Source: Camelus ferus
Lineage: Eukaryota
DNA: 64,000 nt
Direction of reading: 5' to 3'
NCBI RefSeq assembly: GCF_009834535.1
Contig: NC_045696.1
Location: 83,516,001 to 83,580,000 of the forward strand
Shown here: positions 1-52,329 of the stretch, one piece after another
Layout of the letters: the number at the start of each line of letters is the position of its first letter
Numbering within the stretch: position 1 is the first letter of the stretch
Program-made: the position numbers and the translations under genes
The notes under the pieces: generated by a model
The model's database searches: none
Told to the model about the DNA's origin: nothing
What the model saw: the letters and a program-made list of their open reading frames with translations, nothing else

Positions 1-1379
1 GCCAGAAGACATAATGAGAAAGAGGCACATCTAGACTATGAAACCACAACATCAAAGCAAATTTTTACTAAGAAGATTAGATAGGCAGATTTGCATCCAA
101 CTAGTTTCAGTCTGAAATAAGCCAATGTGGAAAAAGATTTCATTTTCAAATGCCCATTACAATTTCATCTAAGTACCAAGATCACCTCTAGAGAGATACA
201 AAAGAAGCGTAAGCCATAAACGCATATTCTCTTCCTTTAACCCAACAATTTCTCTCTAAAATCAGGAAAGAGAAATATGGCAAGCATCTGAGATTCTCAC
301 TCTCATTTATTCAATAATAAATATATACTGAGTTCCTGCAATGGGAAGGAATCATACTGAATTATTGTTTAGCAATCCCCTAGATCCACATTTTAAAACT
401 CAGTTCTATTCTGCTTAAATGTTTTCAGGTACAAGGAAGGTCAGATTGGTTTTCTTTAAAAGATTCTAGCTTAAAACTATCCATTATGACTGCTGTAATC
501 CTGCAAGAATTATTAAAATGGAATCTTAATTCAACACATAGTAACTTCACAACTGCTGGCTACAGGGTTAGGAATTAGGCAAGAGAAACAGGTCAGGGCA
601 GGTGGGAATGCCAACACAGGGAGTCAGTCATACTAGAGACGTAGGCAGGCTTCTGTAATTCTCTGAGTTACTAGAGCCAAGCACATAGTGTCAAAAAAGA
701 CTGTTTTTCCTTTTGTGGGGGGAAAAAGTTGCAGAGTAGACAAAGAAACAAGAGAATGAAATTGGAAGTCTTCCGATGGCAAATTATTAATGCCTTCTCT
801 TTCAGAAATTGCAAGCAGGCAGAAAAAGGTCTAACCTGAAGAGAAGGATCAAAGACTGAAATAAAAGCTTTGATGCCCAAGTTGCTCTGTAGCCCCAAAG
901 CACTGTAAAGCCATGAATGCAGCTGGGAAGATTGTTAACTCCAAAAAAATTGTAGAATGAATTGGTTACTTAATCCCTGGGAGGATACGAGAGTAGGATT
1001 AGGTAGTGATTAATCGCTTCTGAAATTTAATAATGGCATTTAATTTGAAGCTAGGTATTTATATTTCTTTTGATTTTGCCCCACAGTTTGTACATCTTTA
1101 AAAATACATGCCAATGTTGGTGACTGATTGATCGAAATGTTTTATTTGAATAAAAAGTTTATTTCTCAAAAGATAACTTTACTGAGACTAAGCTACCTTT
1201 CCCAGAGAAAGCCCAGCAGGGCTGATCAGACAGCCACAGCCTTGCAGGACTGTTCATCCTGAGACAAGGACCCAAACGGCTGACAAAATGACTCAAAGAA
1301 AAAGAAATCAACTTTTGAGCCTAATTTTGCAGCCTCAAACTTAAAGCTCCACAACAGGCTAAACAAAATTCTTACTAAT

Positions 1380-1540
1380 CTATTCATTCACTCATTCAAT
1401 AGGCACATTTAAAGCTCAATTTGTTTCAGGCACCTTGCTGGGGGCTAGATAAAAAGCCGCTAAGATTCAATCCTGGCCTCAAAGTCACTATGTAGAGACC
1501 ACAGAACTTTGGACTTTGAAGTGGACTTAAAGGTCATCTT
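1380..1540. mobile_element. L2 3' end followed by a MIR3-like fragment
   Basis: tattcattcactcattcaa...tgtttcaggcaccttgct is an L2 tail; ttgaagtggacttaaaggtcatct is MIR3-like. Confidence 0.45.
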
Positions 1541-3242
1541 TTCCTCTGACTTTGCAAGCTCCTTATGCTGATCCTACCACATGGTCATTCATAATCTAAA
1601 TGTACATCTTCAGCGAGAGGAAACTTACTACCTCCCTGGGCAGAAAGTTCCTTTTTCATTAAAAAAGAAAAAAAGTGTTTAAAAAAAAATAAAGTAGAGC
1701 TCAATATCATGCCCCAAAACAAATAAATAGACTGAAGTAGCCACTTTAAGCCTCTGAAGTTGGATTTCATGCATTTTCTTTTTGCTTAGCAAAAATGTTT
1801 GTGTAATTCAATAAGTGGCACACATACATTCTCTTTATTAATCATCAGGTATCCCAAAACTGTCTTTAACATAAAAGCCTGTTTAGAATCACAATATTGA
1901 GTCTCGACTACTGATTTCCATCTGGTTCCCACAAGTGGCATTTCACAACAAAGATAAATTGAAGCCAGAAGGACCATAATACAGTTTAAAGCCACTAGAA
2001 ATCTCCTGGAAGTCTGTTTTCTGTCCAACCTGATTACTTCTTCCAGGACTCAGGGCCAGGAGAGTGTATTCTATGTTTCTACACAACAGAGTAGGGAATA
2101 TCCCCTTTTTAAACAAAGAGGGAAGTTTCTGACAGTAACAGTGGATCTTTGGGTATGATGAGGACCATCTTCCTTCGTTTTTAAACGTTGTTTGGTTGTT
2201 GTTGTGCCATTATTTTTCTTGAACTGAATGAATATTTACTATTCCATGATAGTAAAATACAACTGATCCAGAATGGCTGAAGACTGTTCTTATTCTCCGA
2301 AAAATGTGATTACCTTAAGGTCATGTACATTTTAGAAGGATTTCAAAATATTTAAGAAGGCAATGAAATATTTACTACTAGCTTCGGCTTAAAGCTTCAG
2401 AAGACATTGAACCATTTCTCTTAACCATCAAGAAAATTCCCTTTCCTTGCTCCTAGGTTAAACCCTAAGAGCATTTAACCCTTACGGTCAAAAGATTTAG
2501 CTAAGTATCAGGCATAATGATCTGTTGAATGAATGAATAAATGAATATGTAACATCTCAACAGAGTTGCAGGATACCCTTTAAGTATCATGTCAGTGACT
2601 TCATTAGACTTATTCATTCTTTTTCAGTACAAAAAGGACTTTGAATCACGCAAAACGTCATCTGTCATTTCCTGTTTATAAAACTATTAGGTTTGTTCAG
2701 CTTTAATTTCCTTATTACCTAACTTTTCTTATTTATTAATAGGCTATGAAAAAGCCTTCTTCATCCTCAAGGATTTTATTTTCCCTGATGTATTTATAAA
2801 ATTTTAATCACTGCTTGTCATGAAAAAAATTTTCAGAGGACACATAGAAAACACATTTTTCCTTCTTTAATTGTGCCACTGTCATAAAGTAGGACTATCT
2901 AAATAAGGAAAAAACTCGAAAAAGAAAGGACTTTGAATCACATTTTTCAAGATATGTCTAATATATTATTTTGTATATTTCTTACATTAGCGTATGAGTC
3001 AATTCCCATTTCCTCCAGTATAAGTCCTTTGTTTGATCTGCTTCCGTTCAATTTTAATTTCCATCTTGCTCACTCTTCTTCTTGTAGTCCTTTGCCATGT
3101 GGCTTCCTCTATTGGTGCCATCAGCATTATCCATAATTCTCTAAGTTAACAATGAAGTTACCATTGAGGTACCTGATGTGCAGACCTTCTCTAACTCATT
3201 GTCAACTACACATTTATATAGTCAAGGTATGTGAGTTTCTCA

Positions 3243-3268
3243 GTGTGTGTGTGTGTGTGTGTGTGTAT
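3243..3268. repeat. (TG)n microsatellite
   Basis: Direct read of a gtgtgt... tract. Confidence 0.95.
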
Positions 3269-4269
3269 GTCTTCTGGGTGAGTGGAAATCATCACAGCTG
3301 AGGCCTATCTGAGACTGTCCTCCTTTGCACATGTGAGTAACCCAAGGCCAGCAACCACGTGCTTTCTCTATTTCATGAGAGTGCTCTACTCACAATGGAC
3401 ATTTCTCACATTAGGACCAAAAGGAAGAACAGTATTTCTCTATTAACTCCAAATAGGTGGAAAAGGAGTCCCATCAACTTGTACACAGACTGTAGGGAAA
3501 AGTAGCTTTAGTTTTCTGTTCAGGTATTCCTGACACATTCTTCAGCCAGCTGTAATGTATTCTTGCTTAATTCACAGATTTATTTTGACCCTTTGCCAAG
3601 GTTAGATGTAATATAAGCAACTCAACAATGCAGCAATTGCAGTATCCTGGAGAAGATGATTTGTGATAAATGAAAGCTAAGCAGGGGTCATGAGAACTCA
3701 CAACAGAACAAAACATATCATCTCCTCTGTCAGAATGAAAAAAATTGCCTTTATTTAAGTGACATAACTAAATCTCCAGTCAAATGTTCTGAAGCAGTCC
3801 CTAAAACCATTTTATTTTATTTTATTTTTCTAAAACAATTTTAAACCATTACAACGACTTCAACAAATGTTCATTAAAAATGCAGGCAGGTTCTTAAAAT
3901 CTCAGGTCTCATGTACTTTACTCTCCCCTCCCCCACACCCCTCAGTCTCAGGCGTTGTTCAGAATTAACAGACTATAAACATGTTATTTTTACACTTGTC
4001 TTCTGTGGTTTGCCAATTGATTCAAAAACAGATGGGTTAAACCATTACTTCCAACCCACTTAGGCAGTCCAGATACTACCATTCTCATCAGTGATGAGGA
4101 AAGCCTTCATCCAATATCATTCTACCCACCTAAAGCAGCTGCAGAATGCTACTTAATTTCCTTCGTGCCCCACACTCACTAGAAAGAACAGAGACCCAAA
4201 GCACTTTATTCTTGAAGGAGAAGAGACGCAAGAAGAGAGTCCCCTTCTGAGAGAGTTTAATCCAGCTGA

Positions 4270-4918
4270 CAATTTAGAGGGAACTGTCCCCACAAGAACC
4301 ACTCTCATTTCTGACACTAACTCCAAGGTCAAAGGTTCCCAAAATCACCCTCATGTCCAATAATTTATTAGAAGGACTCACAAAAAGTACTAAAAGCTAC
4401 TGTATTAAAATCAGCCAAGGAAAGACGTGCATAGGGTGGAGTCAGGAAGTATCAAAAAGGGACCTTCCATCCTCCTCTCCTTGTAGAACCAGAACATGTT
4501 ACTTTGCTGACATCAGTGTGTGACAATATGCATGGACTGCTGCCAATCAGGGAAGCTCAGCGGAGCCCTATGTTCAGAGTTTTTATGGAAACTCCATTAC
4601 ATGGGCATGATTGATTGACTGACTGATTGCCCACTTAGTTGATTTCAGTCTCCAATCTCCAGTTCCTCTGATAGTGACCCGAAGCCCCTACCATAAGTCA
4701 CATTGTTGGTCTTTCAGATGTGGCAAGACCTCAACCTAAGACTATCCAGGTGTGCCCAGTCCCCACCCTATGTCATATTGTTAGACTATCCAGTGACCCA
4801 AGACCCCTAGGTAAATATTCCTATCATATAATTATATTCCAAGGGTCTAGAGATTACCTCCCTAAAGCTGAGGTCAAAGGACAGAGTCTTTTTGCATAAG
4901 GTTGTGTTCTTTACCGTA
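4270..4918 (-). mobile_element. MER21-family LTR (ERVL group)
   Basis: tgtccccacaag...ttctgacac...tagaaggactcaca...aaaatcagccaagg...ttccaagggtctagagattacctcc match the recalled MER21 consensus in reverse orientation. Confidence 0.75.
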
Positions 4919-5399
4919 TCTCTTCCTTTTCTCATAAACTTTTGATTTGGGGCATTCATCTCAATGGTAAATATATTCATTATGATTGTAACTATCCTCT
5001 TGGGCATTATGAAGGTCAGCAAAGATGTATTTAATAAAATAGAGATTTAAAAAGTTAGTTTATAGTAGAATATGTACGGCAGCAAGGGACAGGAGGGTGG
5101 TAGGTGGAAAAGGCAGTATGATGCCTAGTCAGAAACTCAGACCTTGGCATTATGGGCTTGGAACAAATTTGACAAGAGCTTTTTCACTTGATGGCAGTAG
5201 TGAAGAAGTGAATAGCCACCAACCTCTACTATTTGTCCAGGAGGGGACAGACGAAGCTAGCTCTGCACCTCTGGATGGAAAGAGCATGAACAGTAGGATA
5301 CACAGTACACTCAGAGCATTCTTCAAAGCTCCCCTGGATGACAAGACCGCACTACCTGCTGACTTCCAGAACTCAGTCACCACTTCGGTTAAGCTACTC

Positions 5400-5549
5400 C
5401 AGCCATCCCTCCATGGGGTACTGGTTCCAGGACCCCACCAAGGGCACCAAAATCCACAGGTACTCAAGTCCCTTAAATGAAATGGCTTGGTCCAGTTGGC
5501 CCTCCGTGTCCGTGGATGCAGAACCCAAAGATATGGAGGGTGGACTGTA
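5400..5549 (+). mobile_element. MER2/MER8-like TcMar-Tigger MITE, internally deleted
   Basis: ctggttccaggacccc...ccaaaatccacagg.actcaagtccctta and the terminal gtggatgcagaaccc...atatggagggtggactgta. Confidence 0.7.
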
Positions 5550-5839
5550 TGTTAGATCAGTAGTTTCCAACTTTAGCTTGAAGTTGTTTACTAGTACAAG
5601 CAATGGAGCTAAGTTCTGATGGATGAAGGAGAGAAAAGAGAAAAATATAAATTATGAAAACTGCATGAGGGCCTGAATGGAGAAAGAGGAGAGAGAATTC
5701 CCCAACCCCACTCTGCCCCTTCCACTTAATTATCCCAGGACAATTCATATTATAGCCGAAAAACAAAAAGTGTTTATTGGGGCCCACGGCAAGTCCCGCT
5801 TATCCCCAGGCAGCTGTGGGACAATACAAATCAGTGCCA

Positions 5840-6050
5840 TAAAACACTGGAGTTAAAGATCTGAGTTAAAGCCTTGGCTCAGCTGCTAACAAGCTGTGAC
5901 TCAGGCACATCAGTTACGCTTTCTGAGTTTCTATCACTTCAATTCTAATTTATGAATAATATGAAGAGTGGTTGTGAGGCTGAGCTGAGATAACATATGG
6001 GAAAGCATCCTGTTAAATGTATGTTTTTTTTTAACTATTATATAAATATA
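5840..6050 (+). mobile_element. MIR SINE
   Basis: MIR core: agctgtgactcaggca...ttctgagtttct...gttgtgaggctgagctgagataac. Confidence 0.7.
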
Positions 6051-8174
6051 ACATTATTAGTTGAACAGATTAGAAAAAGGTTTTAGCTTTTTTATTTTCA
6101 ATTTTGCCAATGTAGATACATATATACATATATATATCTATGCATACACACATATATATCCCCCAGAGCAATTGGGTCCTACAAAATGATAATATTTGAA
6201 GAATATTAATCAAAAAATTGTATCAAAAATAATAATATTTCAAGATACCCTCATAAAAGGGATATTCAGTCACGGGTTTGGAATGCACAGGAGTCTAGAT
6301 ACACTTCTGAGAGTCACAATACACCTTAGCACACTGAAGGCTCTGGAAAATCCTACAAGAATGAACAGAGTGTAAGGCTATTTGACAAAGAATTTTCCAA
6401 ACTTATTTGAACAGAGAAACTTCATTTCCTGCAACACTCCTTAAAATCCAATGGAAACAGTGATCTAGAGAATACATTTTGAGAAATATAGTAAAGCGGA
6501 TTATTCATGTTTAAAAAATATAATAATAAGGCATTATTTCCCACACATCCAGCTTTATACTAGCTTGACAGTAAGGAAGAGGGCGCCCTACACAGATGCT
6601 CCTGGTGAGAAAAGACTCGAATCTGCAGTGAAGTTTGCACCTTCAGTATCGTCTAGTCTCTCAATTCTCTTCCCATCAATACTCTCCACCCTTTATCTTC
6701 CCTGGAATTTGACTTCTGGCTTTATCTCCTCCAGTCTCCTACTTTGCCTTTTTCAGGAAATGGACCTTTAAATAACCCTCAAAAATTCCATGACCAGGTT
6801 GACTGGGTCCCCAGGACCCCCTTGTTGGGAGGACATCACCGAGGTAGCAGACCCACCAGGAGCTTCCTCCTCCTCCTCCCTGCACTCCCCAAATGCAGCC
6901 TCACTGGACTGCCCTGAAAGCAGAGACTCCTGAAGAGAAGTTTCATTTTTCTCTACCCAGCACCCTGATCACTATAGGGAATTTTAATGAGTGTTTATCA
7001 TACTGATAGTTTCTAACACTAACCAGCCTAAACGCTAATGGAGAAATGTGGACACTCCATTCCATCTACAGCTGGTATTAGTCGGCTTTTACAATAGACT
7101 AAGGAATTTATGGTTTCAAAAATGTCTAAGAAATGAAGTTGCACCATCCAAATTAAGTGACACATCCCAATTACTGACGGTCATGCTGTTAATTCTTGCC
7201 TAGTTCACTATGCCCAGATATAAATAACCCTAAATAAAATCTAACCTTCCACCCCAGCCCCCACCCCCGACACACAAATTCAAATTCAAATGGCATGCAA
7301 AAACTCAGTTATGCTATTCCCCCCAAAAAATGAACAGTATTGATTTTTGCAAAATAGCATGTTAACTTTTTTATCCAAATTTCTTCCTTCAAACTACGCT
7401 TATCAAGTTTCTTAAGAGAAAATGGGACTTACAATAGTCAAAAAACCAAAAAGGGCATTTTTAAGTTTTATTGTGTACCTGATAGAATAACAGAAGTCTG
7501 ATATTTAAAGAAACTATAACAGCAACAAAAACAACAAAAACCTTTTGGCAGCAAGCAATGAAAAAGAAGAAATGACAAATGACTACATGCAAGAATTGGC
7601 CATTTCAATGACATAACATTTTCCTTTCCTTTGGATTTTCAATCTCTTTCCATTGTATTACAGCTATATGTTTTAAATACATTTTTACATAAAGATGCTC
7701 ATCTTAGTATCTTCAGTGGCATTATATAGCTGAGGAGTTGAGATCCAAACTATCAGCTTGGCAATAATGAGCAGCACAGTATTAATATGCATCTTATTTG
7801 CATAACTCCTCAAGTCCAGCTCCCCACCATGACTTGGTTCCTGGGTCTCTTTTAGTGTATTTCTAAGAACACCATTCATCACATGATAATGATCTGTTTT
7901 CCCATCTCTGTAACAAGAATGTAGCCTTTTCAACAGCAGAGCTGTATATTTCTCACACAGGTTCCAAGAGTCCCTCATACGTATGTATATAACGAGTAAA
8001 GCTTTAAAGAAAATCATTTAGCCCATACCTTTTGCAGGAAGATTGTTTTCTCAGCATACTGACCAGGTTTAAGTGCTAAAAATAAACTATAAATCCCTTA
8101 TGTCCCTTTCAGGGAAATGATATCAACTATATTTTTCATATCAGGGGCGCTATTACATTTTAAAGAAACAGCAT

Positions 8175-8430
8175 CACATCATGACTGAAAGGACGAACTC
8201 GGGAGCCAGGCTGCCCGAGTCCACACCCCAGGTCTATCATTGACTATATGTACGACCTCACGTAAGTTACTTAGCGTCTCTTTACGTCAGATGTGTCACT
8301 GTAAAAGGGAACAATCAATGGCACTTACCTTATGGGACTGTCATGAGTAGCAAATGAACTGACATGTATAAACATTTAGGACGGCACTTAACACACAGAA
8401 AACATTATTTACGAGTTAGCTATTATTGTC
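8175..8430 (+). mobile_element. MIR SINE, near full length
   Basis: ggagccaggctgcc...gacctcacgtaagttacttagcgtctc...acttaccttatggg...gttagctattatt. Confidence 0.8.
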
Positions 8431-9059
8431 ACTACTATCCATCTTCAACGTTTTCTAGCCCATCACTAATTACACCCCGCAGAATCAAATGACCTGGATG
8501 GTGCTAGGTCATCCTCTCCTAAGGTTGTCATACTTGCAATATCAGGCAATTCTCATGCTCTCTTTTTTAAACTGCATCTTATGGTTGCTAACACCAGCCA
8601 TGCAGAGCATACCTAGAAGGGTATGTTAGTAAAAGCATTGCCAAGGCTTCTATTTTCAAATCAGTGTCAGGGTAGTAAACCTTCTGTATGGATTCCAAAT
8701 AAGATGGCCCTTTACTAGGCCCACAGGAAGATGTCCAAAAGTAATTTCTTTACTTTCCTCATCAATGGTCTATCTGTCCCTTTACTGTACTTGTCTCAAT
8801 TCCAGCCAATACTGCCAAAACCTTCTGTCAAGTTATAGAAAGCACAATGCAGTCGCCTTACTATGGACTTGCTAGAACCCTGCTGAGGGCTTAAGTCTCT
8901 AAGGCAATGCATCTCTATGATGAACAAAGTAATTCTGAATTTTACCCTATCAGCTCATGCTAAGAACGCATATCAATTTATCTCCACAATATAACCTGCA
9001 TTTCATCTCATACTCTCTCCTAGTAATGCTCATTTAGTATCGCAGATTAATAAGCATGT

Positions 9060-9190
9060 TCAATTAGTGACTTTGCATTTTTTCCAAATTATATCTTCTT
9101 CCCACACTAATTTTATAACTCAATTAAAATAAGCCATTAAGTTTTCTTAGCATGATTTGCTCTTTATAAACCCCCTGCCACTTTCTCCCC
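9060..9190 (-). mobile_element. CR1/L3 LINE reverse-transcriptase remnant
   Basis: The minus strand reads GFIKSKSC*ENLMAYFN*VIKLV..DII, resembling the CR1 RT motif GFxKxKSCLTNLIxFYDxVTxLVD...D.IY. Confidence 0.5.
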
Positions 9191-9264
9191 ATTTTCCTCA
9201 TTTCAATAGGCCTACTGACGAAATGAAGCTGTGGATAAAGAGAAAATGTCTTCTAAACTTCCTA

Positions 9265-9728
9265 GATTAGTTTTCCAGGACTGCTGTAACTAACTAACAC
9301 AAACTGAGCAGCTTAAACAACAGAAACCTACTGTCTCACAGTTCTAGGGACTGGACGTCTAAAAGCACAGTGTCAGCAGGTGACCTCCCTGTGTGTACTG
9401 TCAGGGAACACCCTTCCCATGCCTCTCTTCCAGCTTCGGGTGCTTTGCTGGCAATCCTTGACACTCTTTGGCTTATAAATGCATCACCCTGATCTCTGCC
9501 CGCATCTTCCCATAGTATTCTCCCTGTGTGCATGCCTCTACGTCCAAATCCCCCTTTTCATAAGGACACCAGTCATACTGGATTAGGGTCCCACCTTACT
9601 TCAGTATGATAGCACCTGAACTAATTATATCTGCAAAATCGTATTTCTAAATGAGGTCACATTCTGAACTACTATGGGGTTAGGATTTCAAAATACAAAT
9701 CTGGGGTGATACAATTCAATCTATACCA
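9265..9728 (-). mobile_element. MLT1C/MLT1D MaLR solo LTR
   Basis: attagtttt...ctgctgtaac...gcttaaacaacagaaa...ctcacagttct...taaggacaccagtcatactggattaggg...acaattcaa. Confidence 0.85.
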
Positions 9729-10129
9729 TTTCTCCAATTCAAAATGTTCTTGGAGACACGGCGTCTTAAGAAAATACTTTGGTCCAATCTCCTATTCTAC
9801 CTGCTCATAGAACAGATGAGATCTATCATGGTGAGAGCTCATTGGACTCCTTGACTGGAACCTACTGGCTGCTTGAAAACCACTGGTGACCCAACACCCA
9901 AGGTTTGCTCAGATTTCCCACAGGATGGGAACCGAAGAAACAGCAGAAGCCTTTCCCACGTCACTGTGTGCACTTCCCTTAAAGATCCTCCAGGAATTTA
10001 CAGTCAACAAAAAGAAGTAATGGTTGGATAACGCTTTCTACCTTACAGATCACCTCATATGACTCTCACAGATAACAACACGACTAACAGATAATTATGT
10101 CAAGGATTATTACAAAGAGGCCATGGCTT

Positions 10130-10470
10130 AAAGCTTAAGCTTGCAGACGCTGAGCCAGAGCACTTGGACATGGATGCCAGATCCCCTACTTCCCAGTTGT
10201 CTGATCTTTGGATAGGTTGGGATGCTTCAGCTGGATACAAAAATGGGACAAATAAAGAGTATTAACCTCATAGACTTGTTGTAAGGATTAATAATTTCAT
10301 CCATGTAAATATAGAATAGTGCCTGGTTCATGGAAGGTGGTCAGGAAAATTAGAGGCATTATTATTTTACAAATGGTGACATCAAAGCTCAGGGATATAA
10401 AATGACTTCTCCAATACAGTGCAAGTGGTCACTGGTGTGACCTAACTTCAACCCCAGAACTTGTGAGGGT
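10130..10470. mobile_element. Two adjacent MIR fragments in opposite orientation
   Basis: A plus-strand MIR (aacctcatagacttgttgtaaggatta) is followed by a minus-strand core (attttacaaatggtgacatcaaagctcagg). Confidence 0.6.
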
Positions 10471-11019
10471 TTTTCATGTCACTGGATAGCATTCCAGCAA
10501 CACTCCATTTTTGAGGTGCATAAATATCACTCTTTGAAGTAATGGAGACAGCTGGGGACTCTGGCCTAGGGATAGAGTACCAACCAGCAGTGTTCTATGT
10601 TCAAGAAACTCTGTCTGCTAAACTGTCTGTTCAGTGAACCTGATTTAAGGAAGACACAGTCCTTGAAGATCCAGTAACCACCTCTGCATAAGGTTCTGGA
10701 AGAGCCAGTTTGGCTGGACGAAGAAAAATTAAGAAACTGCTGCCCTGGACATAAGCGAAGCCACGTTTTTTTGCCATGTCCCATGTGCATCTCTTACTGT
10801 AGCCAAGAGAACTACTTGTATTATTATTGTTCCTTGAACTTGCTTTGCTTTTAATGTCTCTGGGAAACAGTTTATTTCCTATGCCCCATTTCATATTATT
10901 GTTCTGTTTATCTTAAGACTAAGTTGTATTTTTTATTTTCAAATCTTCTCATAAAACTTCATTTATCTCCTTGCATCACACAGAGCAACGCTCTCCTGTT
11001 CTCCTGTGTTCTCTGGGAC

Positions 11020-11215
11020 AGAACCATCCTCCAGCATAGCACTTGCGAGAGATGTTACAATCACTGATTTCCTGGTCTCTATTTCCCACCACACTAAGGA
11101 TGCTGTATTTGTTTTGGTGTCTGCAGTACCTAGCACATAGCCTGATGTATTAATAGCTACTGACTAACTGGAAGACTGACTAGAAGAATGAATGAATAAA
11201 TGAATGAATGAATAT
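11020..11215 (+). mobile_element. L2 3' end
   Basis: cagtacctagcacatagcctga...gaatgaatgaataaatgaatgaatgaa tail. Confidence 0.75.
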
Positions 11216-11899
11216 ATAGATTAAAGAAATAAGAAGAGCTCAGAGTCTTAGCATCCAACCATTAGGCACATTATAACTCAACTTCTTACCAGGGAAAGGG
11301 AAGACGGAGTAAGTGCTGAGGAGAAAAGGAGTCACTTTGCATGTGATACAAATCAGTTAATGAAGCTCCAAGTTGTTCTGCCTCGATCCACAGAATTAAA
11401 AAGGAGACTGTTTCACCACCAGCTATCTAGCTTGATTTGCATGTGTTCAGATCTTCAAAGTATTCCCTTTGATTCCTTTAATCAATAGTTATTTTAGAAA
11501 GCTCTTCATTACTTCCTAATTGTCCAAATTCATTTTCTTCATTTTTCTTTATTAGAGGCAGATTTTTCACATGGGTTAAGTAGATCAGCAATTTTATAAT
11601 CATTATCAACTTCAAGCGTTTCTCTCATTTATTAGCATGTCCTTTCTCTCTCTGGGATTGGATTCTTTTCTCCATTTCTGAAATGTCATCTGGTTCATTT
11701 TCTAAACTTCCTTTTCTCCCCATACATGTCAAATAAGGTAAACTTTAGCCTATAATAAAAGCAACCCATGTCTACTCTGACTCTAGATATTTTAATTTAT
11801 CAGATCTCCAGTTTTAGATGAAGATGCAAGTAATTCCCTATTACATTAACTTGTCAAAAAAATAAGTAAATAATTTGCATTCATCTAGATTTTTAGTCT

Positions 11900-12140
11900 G
11901 CCAAAACCAGTAAACTGGCAAAGTCATTACCGTGGCCCAAAAATCACTTCACAAGTAATTGAACCTAACAGTCCCACTGCTGGGAATCTGTATCATGGAA
12001 GTAAAAGCAGCATGTTATTACAGCACTGATCTTTGTGCCAAAAAAACTGGAAAAAAATGAATGTCCATCAAAAAATGAGTAGTTTAAAATGTATGGCACA
12101 TCACTACCATGAAATCTTATGCAACTGTTTGTATATGATC
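11900..12140 (+). mobile_element. Old L1 (L1M) fragment
   Basis: acagtcccactgctgggaatct...aaaaaactggaaa...aatgtccatcaa...atggcacatc. Confidence 0.65.
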
Positions 12141-12503
12141 CTATGAGACCAGAGGAATATACAAAAGAGTATTCAGAAGATTGTAATCTAGGGCGGGAAG
12201 AGAAAGTTGGATGGGAAGAGAAGAAAAAGTAACGTAAGAAAAACAGAGGGACATTCATGTCAAAACAGTATATATGATCTCATTTAATTAAAATTGCATA
12301 TATTGTCTAATTATCATATATTGTATGACTATGACTAAATATACATTAAAAAGTGACCACATGTTTTTCTAAGGGCACAAGAACCATACATTTTTACTTT
12401 TTTATATTGTATATACTGTTAATTTTTAATAATTTAAATTTTTTAGGATTTGAATTATTTTTATCATTTGAATCGTTGTTTATATAATTTGAAAAACAGT
12501 GAA

Positions 12504-12543
12504 TATATATATGTATATATACACACACACACACACACACACC
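12504..12543. repeat. (TA)n(CA)n microsatellite
   Basis: Direct read. Confidence 0.9.
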
Positions 12544-14487
12544 ATATTTAGAGAGAGTAATGTCAATCAGACCAAGGATTATACACTCATAATTCAGAAC
12601 TCAAATCCAGCCATTGGATAAGAGACAGGTTATAGGCAGTACCTCCAGACTATAATCCACCTGCTTGATAGAGTATGTATATGCCCTTTCAATTACATTC
12701 TTTTTAAAAACAGTCTTTTCTAATTTTCATTTTTGATCCACTGTCAAGACTCAGTTCATGTCATTCATTCTTAACTGTCTTGTAAACACATTTGGACAAC
12801 AACACTAAAAAAGGCAATGCAGACTCCTAATGGTATTCTGTAAGGTTGGTCTCCCCCAGTGACTTATGGAAATTTTTGGTATACAAACAAACTTGTGGAA
12901 AACACACACTGATTCTGCCTATGTTTAAAATAATCCAGTATTTTCACCAACACAAAACTAAAAACTACAAAATCTAGCTACTTAATTACTTTGGTAAATA
13001 AAAATTGTTAAGAAATTGAAATAATCAAAATATTCAAGTACTGATGTAGAAAAATAAAGAATAAATTAATCCAGGTGTAATTTCTAGGTCATTATCATTA
13101 CCATATGTCTCTTAATTACCTCTCCCCTCAGGGACTTGATGTTTTGCAAGATTTATTCTACTAAAACAAATGAATTAATAAAGTAATAATTAATTACTTT
13201 TTAAATTCTTAATGAATTAATGACATGTGTTGAGCTACTGATCAAGACGAAGAAACCAGTGTTGCCCACATAGTTGAAACAATTACTTAAGGGCAAATAA
13301 TTCAATCTCATGGATCAACATACAGGTCTGTCAATGTCTTAAAAATAATGGGAACAGTTGAAGATACACCTCAGATCTCAAGGTATACACTGCCCTCTAT
13401 TTCAGAATCAGTGTTCCATTGTCAAAGAATAAATTGGTATTGAAAATTGGCTTTATTTTAATTCACAATTTTTTTTTAAAAAAAGCAAACAACCTAGAAA
13501 AAGTATCAAGATTAATTTACAAGAAAAATAGCTTTTAAGGTGACCCATGAAAAACGTGAGCCTGAACCTTACGCCAAGGGCAGAGGAGGCAAATGGACAT
13601 GAGTGATGAGCTCTCAGCAACCTTCCAATTCCACTGACAAAGATTCAGGTAGGGATAAGAGAAGGCAAACACATCAGCAGAAGGTAATTCATACGATAGT
13701 TTTGTTAGTTTTTTACACCTATTTCTTTAACTTCTATACAATAGGTTTTGTTTTGTTTTTTCTGCCTTGCAAAGATAAATGCAGACGCATTCACATTCTC
13801 TGGAGACCAGAATCAGATGATCAAGTCAAAACAACTCCTTTTGAAACCACCCAATCTCAGAGCAGATACAGTAAAAGATAAATCATTGGCCATTTTGAAG
13901 ATTTCCTGTACAAGAAACATCTTAAAGGTACATGTCCAAAGCTGACAGTTGATTAAGCTCCATCCTTGAAAACTAGGTTACCAGGTTTTGAAACTTTGAG
14001 AATCATGCAAGTGTCAGGTTTTTCTGCGCTTTTTTCTTTTTTAAACAAAGGACACTAAAGTAGTAAATATCACATCACACTGCATTTGTCTTAATACCCA
14101 CTTTGTTTATTCACAAACCACATAAATCTCACAAAAGAATACTATACCAGCGCTTCCAAACCATGGCTCCGTTAAAGATTTAACATCTGAGGTCAGAAAG
14201 AGGTTTTCTTATTAAGCTGCCATTTCCTTTACAAAATAAGAGTATTCTGTACTTACCGCTACCCTTTGAACTCTGATAGTGAATAATTAAAACTAAACTG
14301 CAAAGCATAATTTGTGAGGCTAAGTACTCTGTAGGTTGTAGGTTTTTGCTTAGTGGCTCATTTTAAATGCTCACCAGTCCCCGGAGGGATAACTCTGCCA
14401 TTAGTCAGAATCGACAAACATGACCTGTCCCCAAAAGCAAGGCAGACAGCATCAAATCACAATAAAATGGCCTTGTTGGCGACTCAC

Positions 14488-14592
14488 CATATTGACATCG
14501 GGGTCCCTGAAAACCCTTGGAACACTGGCACCGCTGGGCTTCACCCTCTGAGTATCTCCTTCCATTGAAACAAGTCCCCATTGCAGAGACAG
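14488..14592 (-). CDS. EGFEM1: EGFEM1 coding-derived exon, first EGF-like module; 105 bp
   Basis: The acceptor is ccttttAG (14593-14594) and the donor is G|GTGAGT (14486-14487), phase 1-1 as is typical of EGF exons. It reads VSAMGTCFNGRRYSEGEAQRCQCSKGFQGPRCQY, containing the CxCxxGFxGxxC signature. Confidence 0.88.
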
Positions 14593-14789
14593 CTAAAAGG
14601 AAGGTGGACAAGGAGGTGGGGGAGAATGGACTTGAGGGAAAGAAAGAAAATCCCCAAGGCAAGCACCATGTTGCTAATATAGATGTAATCTAGAAACCTG
14701 TACCAGTTCCTCCATAGCCCCTCCGTGGAAAACAGTGTTTTCATCACAAAGTAATGCTGTCTGAATAAAGCCTTGTAGAACTCTGTACA

Positions 14790-14912
14790 TGGTAACTTCT
14801 ACATCACTTGAAGCTTTGTAGAAATGCCCCATTCCAGAGCTACTGAATCAGAATCCACATCTTAACAAGGTACTAGGTGATCTGTATTCATATTCAAGTT
14901 TGAGTAGCACTC
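14790..14912. mobile_element. MER5A-like hAT-Charlie MITE fragment
   Basis: tagaaatgc...ctactgaatcagaatc...ttaacaag...aggtgatc...aagtttgag. Confidence 0.7.
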
Positions 14913-15993
14913 ATCTAAAGAAAATCCATGGAGCATGTGATGGTGTAGCCAAAACAATATAAAAAACCAGCAAGAAATACTAATACCAGAGGCAAAAGAC
15001 TGTGCTAGATGCCATACAACAAGATAAAACTTTCATCTCACAGTCATTAATTTCCCAGACTGTGTAATACAGTTGAGATGATATCGCGGACAGATGGATG
15101 CGCTGAGCTTAAATCAGCCAGCTGCAGTGGCCCAGCCCTGCGTGCAAATACAGTGACCCTTGTGCATCCCTTCACATTAAGCCTGCTTAACATGGGAAGC
15201 CTGAGGCCACTTCACTAAGCTATTTCAAGAGCAGAAAGCACAGTGGGGAAGGAACCAGGATGCCGACAAAGTCCCGAAGATGCAGGATAACAGAAAAGAT
15301 GAATTGTTGTGCTGGGGCGCTGCACTGATTGCAACACACCGAAGCATTTTAAGTGACTTCGCAGTTACGGTAAACACACAGGTAAAGGAGTCTCTAACTG
15401 GAGCCGTTTCTCCTGGCATGGATGAACTATACAATGCCACTATTTCTGCTGCTGGAGTGCTGTCAAACATACTCCATAGGTTCTGGAATATCCTCACCAG
15501 AGGTTTAGAAAAGGACCGCACACCTCATCTTAAAAAGTAAACTGCTTCCAGAGTTCTGCAATTAATCATGACAAGCACAAGTCGAGAAATCCCATTTAGA
15601 TTTAGTACGGTGATTTCCCTCCGGACTTTTGAATCAACTGTGGATTACAAATGTGATGATATGGGAAAGGGGCAAACAGAAAAGGGAGATGGACATCAAG
15701 GTGTAACCTGTCTGGCTTTAAATAAACTGTCTTTTACATAAGGAGACAGAATATAAAGCAGCCGTTCTACGGGTTCTGATTTCAGACCTATCATTGGAAA
15801 CACTTCACAGAAAGGCTTTTTGTGCATTTTTGCACATGTTGTGTGTGCATTTTCAGTCCAAAGAGATGCTCTGAATCTGTGGTGATTCTAAAGATACCTA
15901 AAACTTGACAGGCATGATATGATTGAAGCCCAAAACAGAGTAAAACTGTTACTCCTAGTGACAGAGAGTCAGACAGGAAGAATTACAACTTAC

Positions 15994-16103
15994 AGCGGAG
16001 GCAGCCAGGTTCACTGTCCCGCCAGCTCCAACCAGGGCAGCGCCTGTAGATGGTCTGCTGCTCCATGCTGTATCCTTGTCTGTAGACAGTGTAAGACCAG
16101 GTC
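15994..16103 (-). CDS. EGFEM1: EGFEM1 coding-derived exon, C-terminal half of the EMI domain; 110 bp
   Basis: The acceptor is ttcttAG (16104-16105) and the donor is T|GTAAGT (15992-15993). It reads TWSYTVYRQGYSMEQQTIYRRCPGWSWRDSEPGCLR, matching the EMI pattern YRxxY...CCPGW...GC with one Cys changed to Arg. Confidence 0.88.
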
Positions 16104-16483
16104 CTAAGAAATACAGAACCTAGATTAGTCTTGCTTCCTCTAAAGGCCAAAGCTGTCATCTTAAACCCACTAAAAACTTCTCCCTTCAACCTAAATCCTC
16201 CCATTTATACACAAACACACAAATATATTATCTGTATATGTTATACATGCACGCATGCACTCACACACACCCCTCACTAAATATGTAACCAAGATTCAAT
16301 ATAGGTATAGTTATTGAAAATTAACAGGGACCTCCAGACCTATAGCAGAAACTATCCTAAGAGTTACTCAGGCTATCCAAAATGAAACCCCAAATTATGA
16401 AGAGAATAATGAAACCCTGCAGGATAACAAGGCACATGCTTTTCAACTCGACAGTGAAGGCCCCTCATATATTGGTCCCACGA

Positions 16484-16750
16484 CAGCACGCATTCTCAAC
16501 AGTGGTGACATCCCCCACAAGGGGGAGGCAATTAGTTCTTGGGTAGGAAGGGTGAAAAAACAATCTTAGCTAATACAAGAGTCAGTGGTCCTACAAACCT
16601 GCACAGTACATAAACAGAAATAAAACGCATCAGTGTTATTAAAACTTCATGGGGAAAGGGGATGATTACTAAAATTTTTTTAAAGTTTACAAAGGCTCTT
16701 TTGTAGGGGGGAAATGACCAAAAAAGGCTGAAAAGGTTGAAAACACTACA
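16484..16750. mobile_element. hAT-Charlie non-autonomous DNA transposon
   Basis: Ends read cag..ttctcaac and ggttgaaaacacta; the interior has cacagtacataaacag...attaaaacttcatgggg. Confidence 0.55.
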
Positions 16751-17419
16751 CTATAGCTATTTGTGCTGACCTCTTAACAGAAAAAAATACCAAACATCTC
16801 TAAACTGGCTAAACTTCCTTTCTATCAAATTAATGTCATATTTATTCTTCATCCCCAAAGCAGTATATTCACTCCCCCTCACATACCTATTCCCATATCC
16901 CCAGCCCAAACCTCCTCATTCAAAGTCAAGGTCAAGTTTCACTTTCTCCAACTTTTCTTTCCCCATCATGTATATCACTCTTTCTCTCCTCTCAAAAGTA
17001 AGGCTTAATGGCTATACCATTTTTTATGGCACTTAATTTTTCACCATCTTGAAGTGTCTCCTAGTATTTCTGGATGTGTATCTCTCCAACAGGGATATAA
17101 GTCTAGGTGAGCATACTTACATACAAACCAAAGGGATACAAGTTTGGGAAAAAGGCCAAAGATCTTTTAACACAGCCTCAACTCCAAACTCAGTGTCATA
17201 AATATCTGCTGAATAAAGGAATGTATAAAACTACAAAGCTCTTGAAAATAAAAATATAAAACACGTTTTCCTCATTCATGTTTGCTTTCTCAAGTCTGAA
17301 TGTCTACAGGTAGTGAACTTACTTTGGTTCAGTCTAATATCAACAATGGTTAAACCTCTGGGAGGAGGACCAAAAAATCTACGTGAAAAGCCATTTTCAA
17401 AAGCAGGTTCTCTAATGAA

Positions 17420-17610
17420 CAAACGTATTGAGTACCTACTATGTACCAGGCATGATGCCACATGTGTGAAATACGTTTTCAGTGAGTCCTCATAATACCC
17501 ATGTGTGGTGGTATTTTTCTAACTTTACAGACTGAGGCACAGAGAAATAGAGGAACTTTCCCAGTGCTATACAGCTGGGAAAAGTCAGGAGAGGCTTTCC
17601 AATTTAAACT
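17420..17610 (-). mobile_element. MIR SINE
   Basis: tattgagtacctactatgtaccaggca...tttacagactgaggcacagaga. Confidence 0.8.
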
Positions 17611-17811
17611 TCATTTAAAGATCCAGAGTTTAGACTAACAACAAGAAGAACAACAAAACTATTCATCTGATAAGAATACAAAATGTATATGTAAATATTC
17701 ACAATTATACATGATGCAGTCTTATTTTATTTAGTCCTATATTATCAGTGTTCTGCCATTTCTATACAATGGCAAACCCAGTTATCTACAAATGTCCTCA
17801 ACTTTCTTTTA

Positions 17812-17892
17812 GCAGTAGTAGTAGTAGGAAGAAGGAGAAGGAGGGGGAGGGGGGAGGGAAAGGGAGGGGGGAAGAGGAGGAGGAGGAGAAGA
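17812..17892. repeat. Purine-rich low-complexity tract with G-runs
   Basis: agtagtagtagtaggaagaaggagaaggagggggagggggagggaaagggaggggggaagaggaggaggaggagaag. Confidence 0.9.
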
Positions 17893-18562
17893 ATTCATTA
17901 ATCTAAAGCCATGCTTTTTTTAACTTTAAGTATCCTGAATTCAGACCAAATTGATTCATTTATATAAAACTTGAACCCATTAGCGACTATTTGTATTAAG
18001 AGGTACTTAGATGTTTCATAAAACTATTTTAAGACTTTTTTTTTTAAATCCTTATGAAGCCTTAACATAGAAGCATGTACTTGCTTTGTCTCTCCTCCCC
18101 CAGCCAGCTGAGTGAACCCTAACTCAAAGGCCATAATACAGGTAAGAATCTCTAGGTTTCAAGGTATTACAAGAGAACCAAGGGCAAGTCAGATGGTGGT
18201 TCACAACCGTAGATGCCCTGGATCCAAGTCATGGTAAATTTAGCAAACCAACACAATATTCCTTGTTTCTGTCAGCCTGCTGACTTTCAGCTTTCAGTAG
18301 CCTATCTTGTCATGAGGTAAAATTAGAGGCATCTAATCCACTATAGCTCACATATAAATGAGGCCTCAAGTAAAGTAAGAATATATCCTGTTCCTAAAGG
18401 AAAATATATAACTCAGAAAAGTTCCTGGTGGGTGTATCTTGTGCATGTTTATTTAATTATGTAATTATTTTCTAAAATGTCTTGGGGTGAAATCTTCAGA
18501 TGCAGCTGAGGCTTTGGTTTTGATTTTGAGGAATTAAGAGGAAATAGCAGAAGCACTCTTAC

Positions 18563-18695
18563 CTTCCTTCATAACCCACACACCATCTTGGGCCCGTGCA
18601 GCCGTTTCCAGGTCTTGACGGTGTGTGTGGATGCTTGGACACATGGGTGTGCAAGTCCCACCACCATCAGTTTCTGTTCTTCACAAACATTTGGC
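18563..18695 (-). CDS. EGFEM1: EGFEM1 coding-derived exon, N-terminal half of the EMI domain; 133 bp, frameshifted
   Basis: The acceptor is a T-rich tract plus AG at 18696-18697 and the donor is AAG|GTAAG at 18561-18562. One frame gives PNVCEEQKLMVVGLAHPCVQASTHTVKTWK. After a single C the homologous GCTGPRWCVGYEGR continues in another frame. The unshifted frame hits TGA at 18569-18571. Confidence 0.85.
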
Positions 18696-50915: not shown

Positions 50916-51154
50916 GTTGCAGTGTCTAGGGCCCTAAAATATACTAATTTTCAAAATATGATAATCCGGTTCCCATAGCAACCATAAACCAGTCTTTTGA
51001 AGGACACATAGTAATGATATTCTGGCTGGAAACAACCTCCACTGACCACTGAGAAAAATGAAACGATAGCCAAATCGTAACAAGCCAAGATGGCATTGTT
51101 TTAAAGATTCCAAGTTTCCTCTCTTTGACATCCTCAATGCTAAAGCAGGCAGGT

Positions 51155-51385
51155 GTCTGGCCGCACGCTAAGGCAATCTTGAATTCCGCGGAGCGCGCGG
51201 CGCGGAGGGGTGCAGCCCGGCCGCCCCCAGAGAGCCCCCCGCCACGCCGTGATTGCCTATCGACCCGCGTGAGCCCGCCCCCTGTCGGCACGGGGTGGGG
51301 GGGGGGGTCAGCGGTGAGTTTGCACCAGGCATTGGCCATATTCCTCGGGGCAATCCCATTTCCTAACAAACGCAGCGCGGTGCAT
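51155..51385. promoter_or_regulatory. Small CpG-island-like GC-rich element; candidate promoter or enhancer
   Basis: Roughly 25 CpGs (counted by eye) in ~230 bp in an otherwise CpG-depleted window. It has a GC box cccgcccc (~51274), a reverse CCAAT attgg (51331-51335) and GCGCGC runs. Confidence 0.6.
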
Positions 51386-52329
51386 TTTCACAGCATCCTT
51401 CATCTCTTTCACAATTTAAACGCACATCGGCAGAGCTATATTTCCACACAGTCTACTGCAAATAATTGCTAGAAAATCCTCGCACAAGGTTCAAGTCTCC
51501 CCTGATTTGCCCAGGAACAACTCTACGATGGAACGTGAGTGTCTTCCACTATGCTACCCCAAACAGAATATTGGAAACTTCAAACGTTTGTTAGTCTTCA
51601 CCAACTGGCAATAAGAATGAAATAGAGCATCTAGGGTTTGCTTTGGCCAGTCACAGACAATACTTCAGAATTCTTTATTGTTTGTTAAGCCTAGAATTTA
51701 CCCAGTTCACTGGGCTTAAAAGAGCATTCATCAAAGGAAAGTTAGAATTCAATCTAATTTTTTAAACACTCCCTTCTAAAATCCCTTGACACAAATTCAT
51801 TGAGTTCTCTCCGGTGATGCATCGTCTGTATCGCTCCATTGGCTTTCCAGCTGCTGTCCTCTGGCTCTGTCCTCTAAAATACATCCCTCTGAAATCAGTA
51901 CATTTCCATTACACCAAATGAGTCATCTTTCCAGGAATTTCCAAGGAATTGTTCAGCCGAGCATCTCGTGTCTTTTAGCAAAAAGTCTTTTTCCAGCACT
52001 CCTTTCTCCATCCACATTTCCACCATAATGGTCTCATCAGCAGGTAACCTCCCACAGACCATCCTGATTCTAGTTTCTCCCTTGCTCTCCCTGCACCCTA
52101 ATCCAACCTCCTTATGATTCTCAGTCATTTCCCTCAAATCCCATTTTCATGTCCACACTCTGAGGATGCAGCCTCCCAGGGCATCCTCCTCCCACTTCTG
52201 CCCTTGGTCAGCAGGAGATGGAAGATCAGAGTTATTGCTGCCCAACCGCACTCAACTAGTCGGAGAAAGAGAATTTTCATATGTTGCCTAACCCAACTTC
52301 TCTCAGGTCCTGGAAAGTGCCAGACCCTC

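Follow-up and report, generated by a model that had tools for sequence, protein, structure and literature searches.

Has EGFEM1 been lost in camelids, separately from its loss in humans, and is a two-base frameshift in the first half of its EMI domain the lesion that silenced it? The question arises from 64 kb of Camelus ferus DNA (64,000 nucleotides, hereafter the window, always taken at its full length), in which a first-pass annotation had described an exon whose homologous peptide changes frame, and had read it as an inactivation independent of the human one. In mouse, Egfem1 (Q8C088, 590 aa) shares with the camel locus the layout of signal peptide, EMI domain, EGF repeats and acidic linker but, unlike it, has an open frame and an intact exon 2; it is shorter than a 1321-aa killifish model and lacks several exons that can still be made out in camel. 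We take RIKEN 6130401L20 to be an older name of this mouse gene. Under that designation, the human locus (chr3+:169450424-170021809) figures among unitary pseudogenes, beside GULO and UOX, in an excerpt of the supplement of Zhang et al. (PMC2864566); no match to the human locus was obtained in the main text of that paper, nor any in the main text or supplement of Zhu et al. (PMC2134963).

The camel locus and its second exon

A buffalo protein, used in a stricter genome search whose tallies are lower bounds, maps exon by exon to the minus strand of contig C1 (G000:C1, 83.587 to 83.088 Mb), with further exons reaching 83.068 Mb. Altogether, 25 exons align in order over G000:C1:83.586-83.068 Mb, and they encode in succession a signal peptide, the EMI domain, EGF_CA repeats, an acidic linker and laminin-type EGF repeats. 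The best protein matches all fall on C1, the next being MEGF6 on C13 at 42-63%. In a tree of 38 rows, camel joins alpaca (100/95) within the placental EGFEM1 clade (100/100), and three MEGF6 rows form a clade of their own (100/100); this separation, together with the position of MEGF6 on C13, rejects MEGF6 as the identity of the camel locus. Furthermore, the exon 2 peptide is 100% identical over 24 aa to a dromedary EGFEM1 model, so that the tree and this match uphold the gene name proposed at first pass. The neighbourhood comprises a PR-domain exon at C1:82.886 Mb (+), 180 kb beyond the 3′ end of the gene, which we take to be MECOM-like, and a PDCD10 domain at C1:84.02 Mb (+), 440 kb before the 5′ end, an arrangement with which the human gene order around PDCD10 presumably agrees. 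Human EGFEM1P itself stands tail to tail with MECOM, according to a passage of PMC4396373. Exon 2 has a single DNA match in the camel genome, and DNA and protein searches of that genome found no working EGFEM1 copy elsewhere, the next best hit being MEGF6. With good confidence, we describe camel EGFEM1 as a single-copy paralogue of MEGF6, roughly 520 kb long with about 27 exons, that has become a unitary pseudogene.

Exon 2, which encodes the first half of the EMI domain, occupies 133 bp of the minus strand (window 18695-18563), its AG acceptor preceded by a run of pyrimidines and its donor reading GTAAG. The last codon of exon 1 is cut after its second base, and exon 3 opens with a third codon base; thus both ends of exon 2 are in phase 2 and a length of 135 bp is expected, which leaves the exon 2 bp short. 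The frame that matches intact homologues runs as far as TGG AAA C and then goes out of register until it meets a TGA at 18571-18569 (minus strand), 6 bases upstream of the donor, and the homologous peptide is picked up again one frame over, at 18603. In the one camel assembly, a frameshift-aware alignment with the yak protein as reference places a 2-base deletion at window 18604, the homologous frame jumping between bases 18603 and 18604 (minus strand). As a control, the paralogous MEGF6 exon of the same genome is 135 bp long, in phase 2-2 and open. The structural details given at first pass are all borne out: the 133-bp length with phase 2 on both sides by the splice sites, the flanking phases and the MEGF6 counterpart, the frame jump at 18603/18604 by the yak alignment, and the TGA at 18569-18571 by reading of the frame.

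There is no homopolymer run at the break; two other 2-base deletions of camel EGFEM1 sit in dinucleotide repeats, and the exon 2 site has no obvious slippage motif. Programmed frameshifting at this place is ruled out by stops on both sides and by the lack of a slippery run. Since the two ends of exon 2 share one phase, its skipping would preserve the frame. A homologue search with the 41-aa exon 2 frame found nothing (2 candidates), Pfam did not recognise the exon, the leads of an ESM Atlas search were all below 0.9, and the exon 2 of any mammal, sought in metagenome contigs, gave 77 pattern matches and 0 confirmed relatives.

Exon 3 (15994..16103, minus strand, 110 bp, phase 2-1) encodes the second half of the EMI domain and exon 4 (14488..14592, minus strand, 105 bp, phase 1-1) the first EGF-like domain; their Pfam matches (EMI, E 0.002; EGF_2, E 0.0011), like all EMI and EGF matches on single exons, lie below the curated cut-offs. 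Most of intron 1 fills the window from 18696 to 64000 on the same strand, exon 1 and its CpG island lying about 6 kb past the window end (G000:C1:83586260-83586170), and positions 1..14487 (minus strand) hold the start of a 266-kb intron 4. The window contains 23 stop-to-stop frames of at least 110 aa, and an Rfam search within its 64 kb gave no match. As separate observations, a CpG-rich patch at 51050-51450 in intron 1 (observed/expected 0.84 over 51001-51500) is a possible conserved enhancer or internal promoter, and a stretch of intron 2 at about 16540-16430, on the minus strand, matches a cryptic exon of the pig model P0030, which shifts the frame of that model's exons 3 and 4.

Decay of the protein gene and its timing

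Camel EGFEM1 is a unitary pseudogene whatever the exon 2 site does, because over the 25 aligned exons (1033 codons) it carries four in-frame stops (TAG at codon 6 of exon 1, TAA in exon 5, TAG in exon 11 and TGA in exon 23) and frameshifting indels in six exons (2, 10, 14, 15, 17 and 24, in our own exon numbering). The latter represent eight events; both exon 15 events cancel, and the exon 17 indel, which lies in an A-run, could be an assembly slip. Among the 162 reference cysteines, 14 are changed, and a Cys-to-Tyr change is found in exon 4 (14554-14552, minus strand). The codon 6 stop ends translation inside the signal peptide and, being upstream of the exon 2 deletion, prevents the latter from being named as the first hit. 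The first-pass proposal that the frameshift inactivated the gene is therefore right about the lesion but need not hold for its role as the inactivating one, since it is one of many.

Apart from these lesions, exon 10 (L006:7340-7220) stands out: besides a 2-base deletion, 14 of its 38 residues carry camel-derived changes, far above the 6% of exons 5-9 (12 of 203 residues). An earlier loss of this exon is one possible cause, a hotspot of mutation or conversion another. Two short exon-like stretches, L007:3857-3786 and L014:646-554, possibly left over from lost exons, recur in models of distant mammals (hare, yak and one further mammal), where the frames used have no cysteine repeats.

All seven camelid RefSeq models (two of C. 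ferus, four of dromedary from two annotation releases, and one of alpaca), which are still named as proteins, begin at a Met of exon 3 (16064..16066, minus strand), the first Met in the post-break frame; an open 135-bp exon 2 would offer an earlier one at the exon 1/2 junction, about 58 codons upstream. The two C. ferus models were probably built on the same sequence, hence they are not independent, and the dromedary and alpaca models could be without exon 2 for other reasons. Long-read assemblies do contain small indel errors, and the exon 2 deletion might be counted among them; we hold this to be very improbable, since the site is not a homopolymer, the dromedary models (in both releases) and the alpaca model start at the very Met that the shift predicts, a base-for-base match to a whale peptide, discussed below, is hard to expect from an error, and the base-substitution stops elsewhere in the gene represent real decay.

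It is also improbable, if not quite to the same degree, that a useful short EGF-repeat protein is still made from the exon 3 Met, as the RefSeq entries have it. Exons 6-9 are indeed open, with 85-95% identity to ruminants, and models of 201-440 aa exist in three species, but without a signal peptide the disulfide-rich repeats would be expected to miss the secretory path; moreover, the models skip a stop-bearing exon, end at differing places and run in part in shifted frames, and cysteines have been lost in exons 3, 4 and 7. The continued listing of a protein would rather be due to gene finders, which would rescue the longest leftover frame from the exon 3 Met, without signal peptide, in a gene that is dead.

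With regard to the human loss, 33 of the 41 therian models tallied cover the deletion site, two of them shifted and 31 intact (pig, six ruminants, four bats, shrew, hare, one further mammal, 11 rodents, armadillo, manatee and four marsupials), bearing in mind that an intact exon 2 is not proof of a working gene, as the models of pig, ruminants, bats and rodents are in many cases short or out of frame in later exons. A lesion shared with human by descent would mark all boreoeutherians, so this intact bracket makes the camelid event a separate one, whatever the human lesion is. The camelid lineage guessed at first pass is correct, and the independence put forward there is supported, at the level of sequence comparison, by the intact exon 2 of pig, ruminants, bats, shrew, hare and rodents. 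Human EGFEM1P (3q26), the host of miR-551b, resembles the camel gene in being a unitary pseudogene at the orthologous locus, beside the 3′ end of MECOM, and probably in its host role as well; it differs in representing a separate loss and in being annotated as a pseudogene, whereas the camelid genes are still annotated as protein-coding.

The lesions also carry information on time. Under a simple mutation model (transitions 4 times as frequent as transversions, CpG sites 10 times as mutable), the four stops and the 14 altered cysteines are accounted for by 0.042 neutral changes per site (0.026-0.065); a value of 0.10 is rejected by the stops (P 0.011) and by the cysteines (P 0.0006). The camelid branch since the artiodactyl root amounts to about 0.10-0.11 changes per site, which implies that constraint lasted past the first third of that branch. 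In turn, the alpaca model also starts in exon 3, omits exon 5 and has the same cysteines missing from exons 3, 4 and 7; decay thus began before the camel-alpaca split. Over 772 sites in 20 of the 25 exons, derived residues number 85 in camel vs 41 in the ruminant consensus, a comparison that is tilted, since the consensus omits terminal branches. From these data we infer that selection on the secreted EMI/EGF protein would have lapsed on the camelid stem, well after the split from the line of pigs, ruminants and whales and before camel and alpaca parted, with lesions then piling up neutrally; the human loss and that of monodontid whales would be separate events.

The match with beluga and narwhal

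The predicted proteins of two sister species, beluga (XP_022428554.1) and narwhal (TKC36627.1), agree without a gap with camel in its shifted frame up to the break and in the true frame from there on, a match that the first pass had not foreseen; for gene models to read through in this way, a 2-base deletion at the same place is required. Identity to camel across the break is 21/28 residues for beluga and 18/23 for narwhal, and beluga and camel differ there by at least 9 base changes over 29 codons. No whale model turned up among the models of at least 276 aa. Ahead of the break, still within exon 2, both whale models (P0028, P0002) also imply a net gain of 13 bases, accompanied by a His-Thr-His repeat.

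The reliance on two predicted proteins from sister species, and the fact that the additional bases of the beluga exon are not resolvable at base level, give some room to a different origin of the same whale peptide, namely a deletion close by combined with a substitution, or an artefact of the gene models. On the other hand, two separate annotations agree, neither of them flagged as corrected, and by our reasoning only one single 2-base deletion gives Gly-Asn-Gly at that place. We therefore regard such a look-alike as quite unlikely. Provided that the whale models are informative, we think it fairly probable that the deletion of beluga and narwhal is a second hit at the same two bases, and recurrence is likelier as an explanation of the camel-whale match than a shared old allele. 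There is some precedent for recurrence: among about 104 inactivating mutations of toothed whales, nine are homoplastic, as reported in the part of PMC13299492 available to us, where homoplasy is weighed against hemiplasy. The genes described there, CNGA2, CNGA4 and OMP, resemble EGFEM1 in showing independent losses with occasional identical lesions; unlike it, they do so within toothed whales and on short branches, while the EGFEM1 match links camels to whales across the intervening pigs and ruminants.

Nevertheless, several features fit shared ancestry better than chance: the matching whale deletion at a site without an obvious slippage motif, the common loss of a cysteine and a change confined to the lineages in between. 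Indeed, the first Cys of the Cys-Cys pair of exon 3 is lost, among 40 models, only in camelids and both whales (camel Arg, 16040..16042, minus strand; beluga Arg; narwhal Leu; Cys in 31 other models), and pig and ruminants have in common a Gly-to-Ser change three codons after the break. Shared descent would mean a single origin of the deletion and the cysteine loss among early artiodactyls, a polymorphism that outlasted the splits of pigs and ruminants, and fixation in camelids and whales; as exon 2 can be skipped in frame, only the EMI domain may have gone at first, the rest of the protein dying much later. We consider this hemiplasy unlikely, if somewhat less so than the look-alike. Besides the gapless reading of both whale models across the break, it is favoured by the tree of the exon 2 tail and exon 3, which groups whales with camelids (SH-aLRT 83), and by the larger share of camel-derived changes in the EMI exons (10/78 residues vs 16/237 in exons 4-9), an excess that is not significant (P 0.10) and whose ratio is the same in ruminants. 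Against it, exon 4, 1.4 kb from exon 3, places whales beside ruminants (SH-aLRT 90); neither alternative topology is rejected (p-AU 0.36 and 0.28), the 50 and 35 protein columns having no power. The allele would also have to outlive two speciations, and a null allele of such age agrees poorly with the late date of the loss, except if exon 2 was skipped. A Trp after the third Cys of exon 3, which camel and beluga seemed to share, was dropped as a common change: it is CpG decay, and alpaca keeps Arg.

The succession of camels, pigs, ruminants and then hippos with whales is supported by SINE insertions (in the part of PMC9223172 at hand), and the portion of 10.1101/139147 that we drew on gives the same order and judges lineage sorting negligible in one phylogenomic set. 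If real, the shared allele would give a loss-of-function indel whose inheritance, over a tract of a few kilobases, runs counter to the accepted artiodactyl tree. The camel-whale match offers a clean test of how often identical frameshifts recur, in a class of characters for which homoplasy is commonly taken to be almost absent.

A proposed conversion of the protein gene into a microRNA host

What remains of the gene is not without order. The CpG island of exon 1 keeps an observed/expected ratio of 0.83-0.88, vs 0.23 in the window, and the splice sites of exons 1-4 are canonical. The camel genome has two mir-551 hairpins, one in intron 4 of EGFEM1 (C1:83331154-83331081, that is L022:1501-1574, thus outside the window; same strand as the gene, 89.4 bits, full length, fold z -4.4) and one in intron 4 of MEGF6 (G000:C13:1877308-1877381, L023:1501-1574), which implies that gene and microRNA were duplicated together. 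MEGF6, with its intronic mir-551a, is like camel EGFEM1 in the phases of exons 2-4 and in the place of the hairpin, and unlike it in its location on C13, its open exons 2-4 in this genome and its separate clade. It is a likely source of redundancy, and the EGFEM1 protein was perhaps dispensable through overlap with it.

The survival of the CpG-island promoter, the early splice sites and the intact hairpin suggests, as far as sequence can tell, a non-coding microRNA host. On balance, we lean towards the view that the EGFEM1 transcription unit would persist because its intron 4 hosts a mir-551b-type hairpin, which would be processed out of the primary transcript regardless of the coding capacity of the spliced RNA, the latter presumably going to nonsense-mediated decay. 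At 255 kb from exon 1, the hairpin might also be served by a promoter of its own. Human leukaemia samples show a correlation of miR-551b with its host EGFEM1P, according to an excerpt of PMC7391693. As a separate observation, exons 2-4 (window 14488-18695) form a tight 4-kb cluster between introns of 52 kb and 266 kb, a layout favouring circular RNA; circular RNAs from the EGFEM1 locus are on record for mouse, human and rat in portions of PMC12211884 and PMC8701796.

The model of the Damaraland mole-rat (Fukomys damarensis, P0052) goes out of frame later in exon 2 and is without exons 3-4, which makes a further loss among rodents likely, as judged from the gene model. The manatee model is flagged as low quality, and the models of white-tailed deer, Molossus, yak, vole, armadillo and pig have shifted frames in some exons; as such shifts can stem from skipped or cryptic exons, all these cases, the mole-rat included, are leads and not counted losses. 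A copy-number region of the pig overlaps EGFEM1 in the section of PMC11344843 consulted, and the parts retrieved of PMC9650597, PMC6246933, PMC8897452 and PMC10097643 have no bearing on EGFEM1 evolution. None of the titles and excerpts on EGFEM1 that were retrieved reports a camelid or whale loss; loss tables built on the mouse reference, in supplements and subscription journals outside this search, may already flag it. The camelid loss is real, independent, of a known kind and apparently unreported.

With the camelid loss, and probably one in toothed whales too, EGFEM1, so far recognised as a pseudogene in humans alone, appears as a repeatedly discarded partner of MEGF6. Screens that start from human coding genes are blind to losses of this sort. 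Should the transcript persist as a source of miR-551b, several lineages would have gone through the same conversion of a protein gene into a microRNA host, and such a switch bears on how results on the human EGFEM1P "lncRNA" are to be read.
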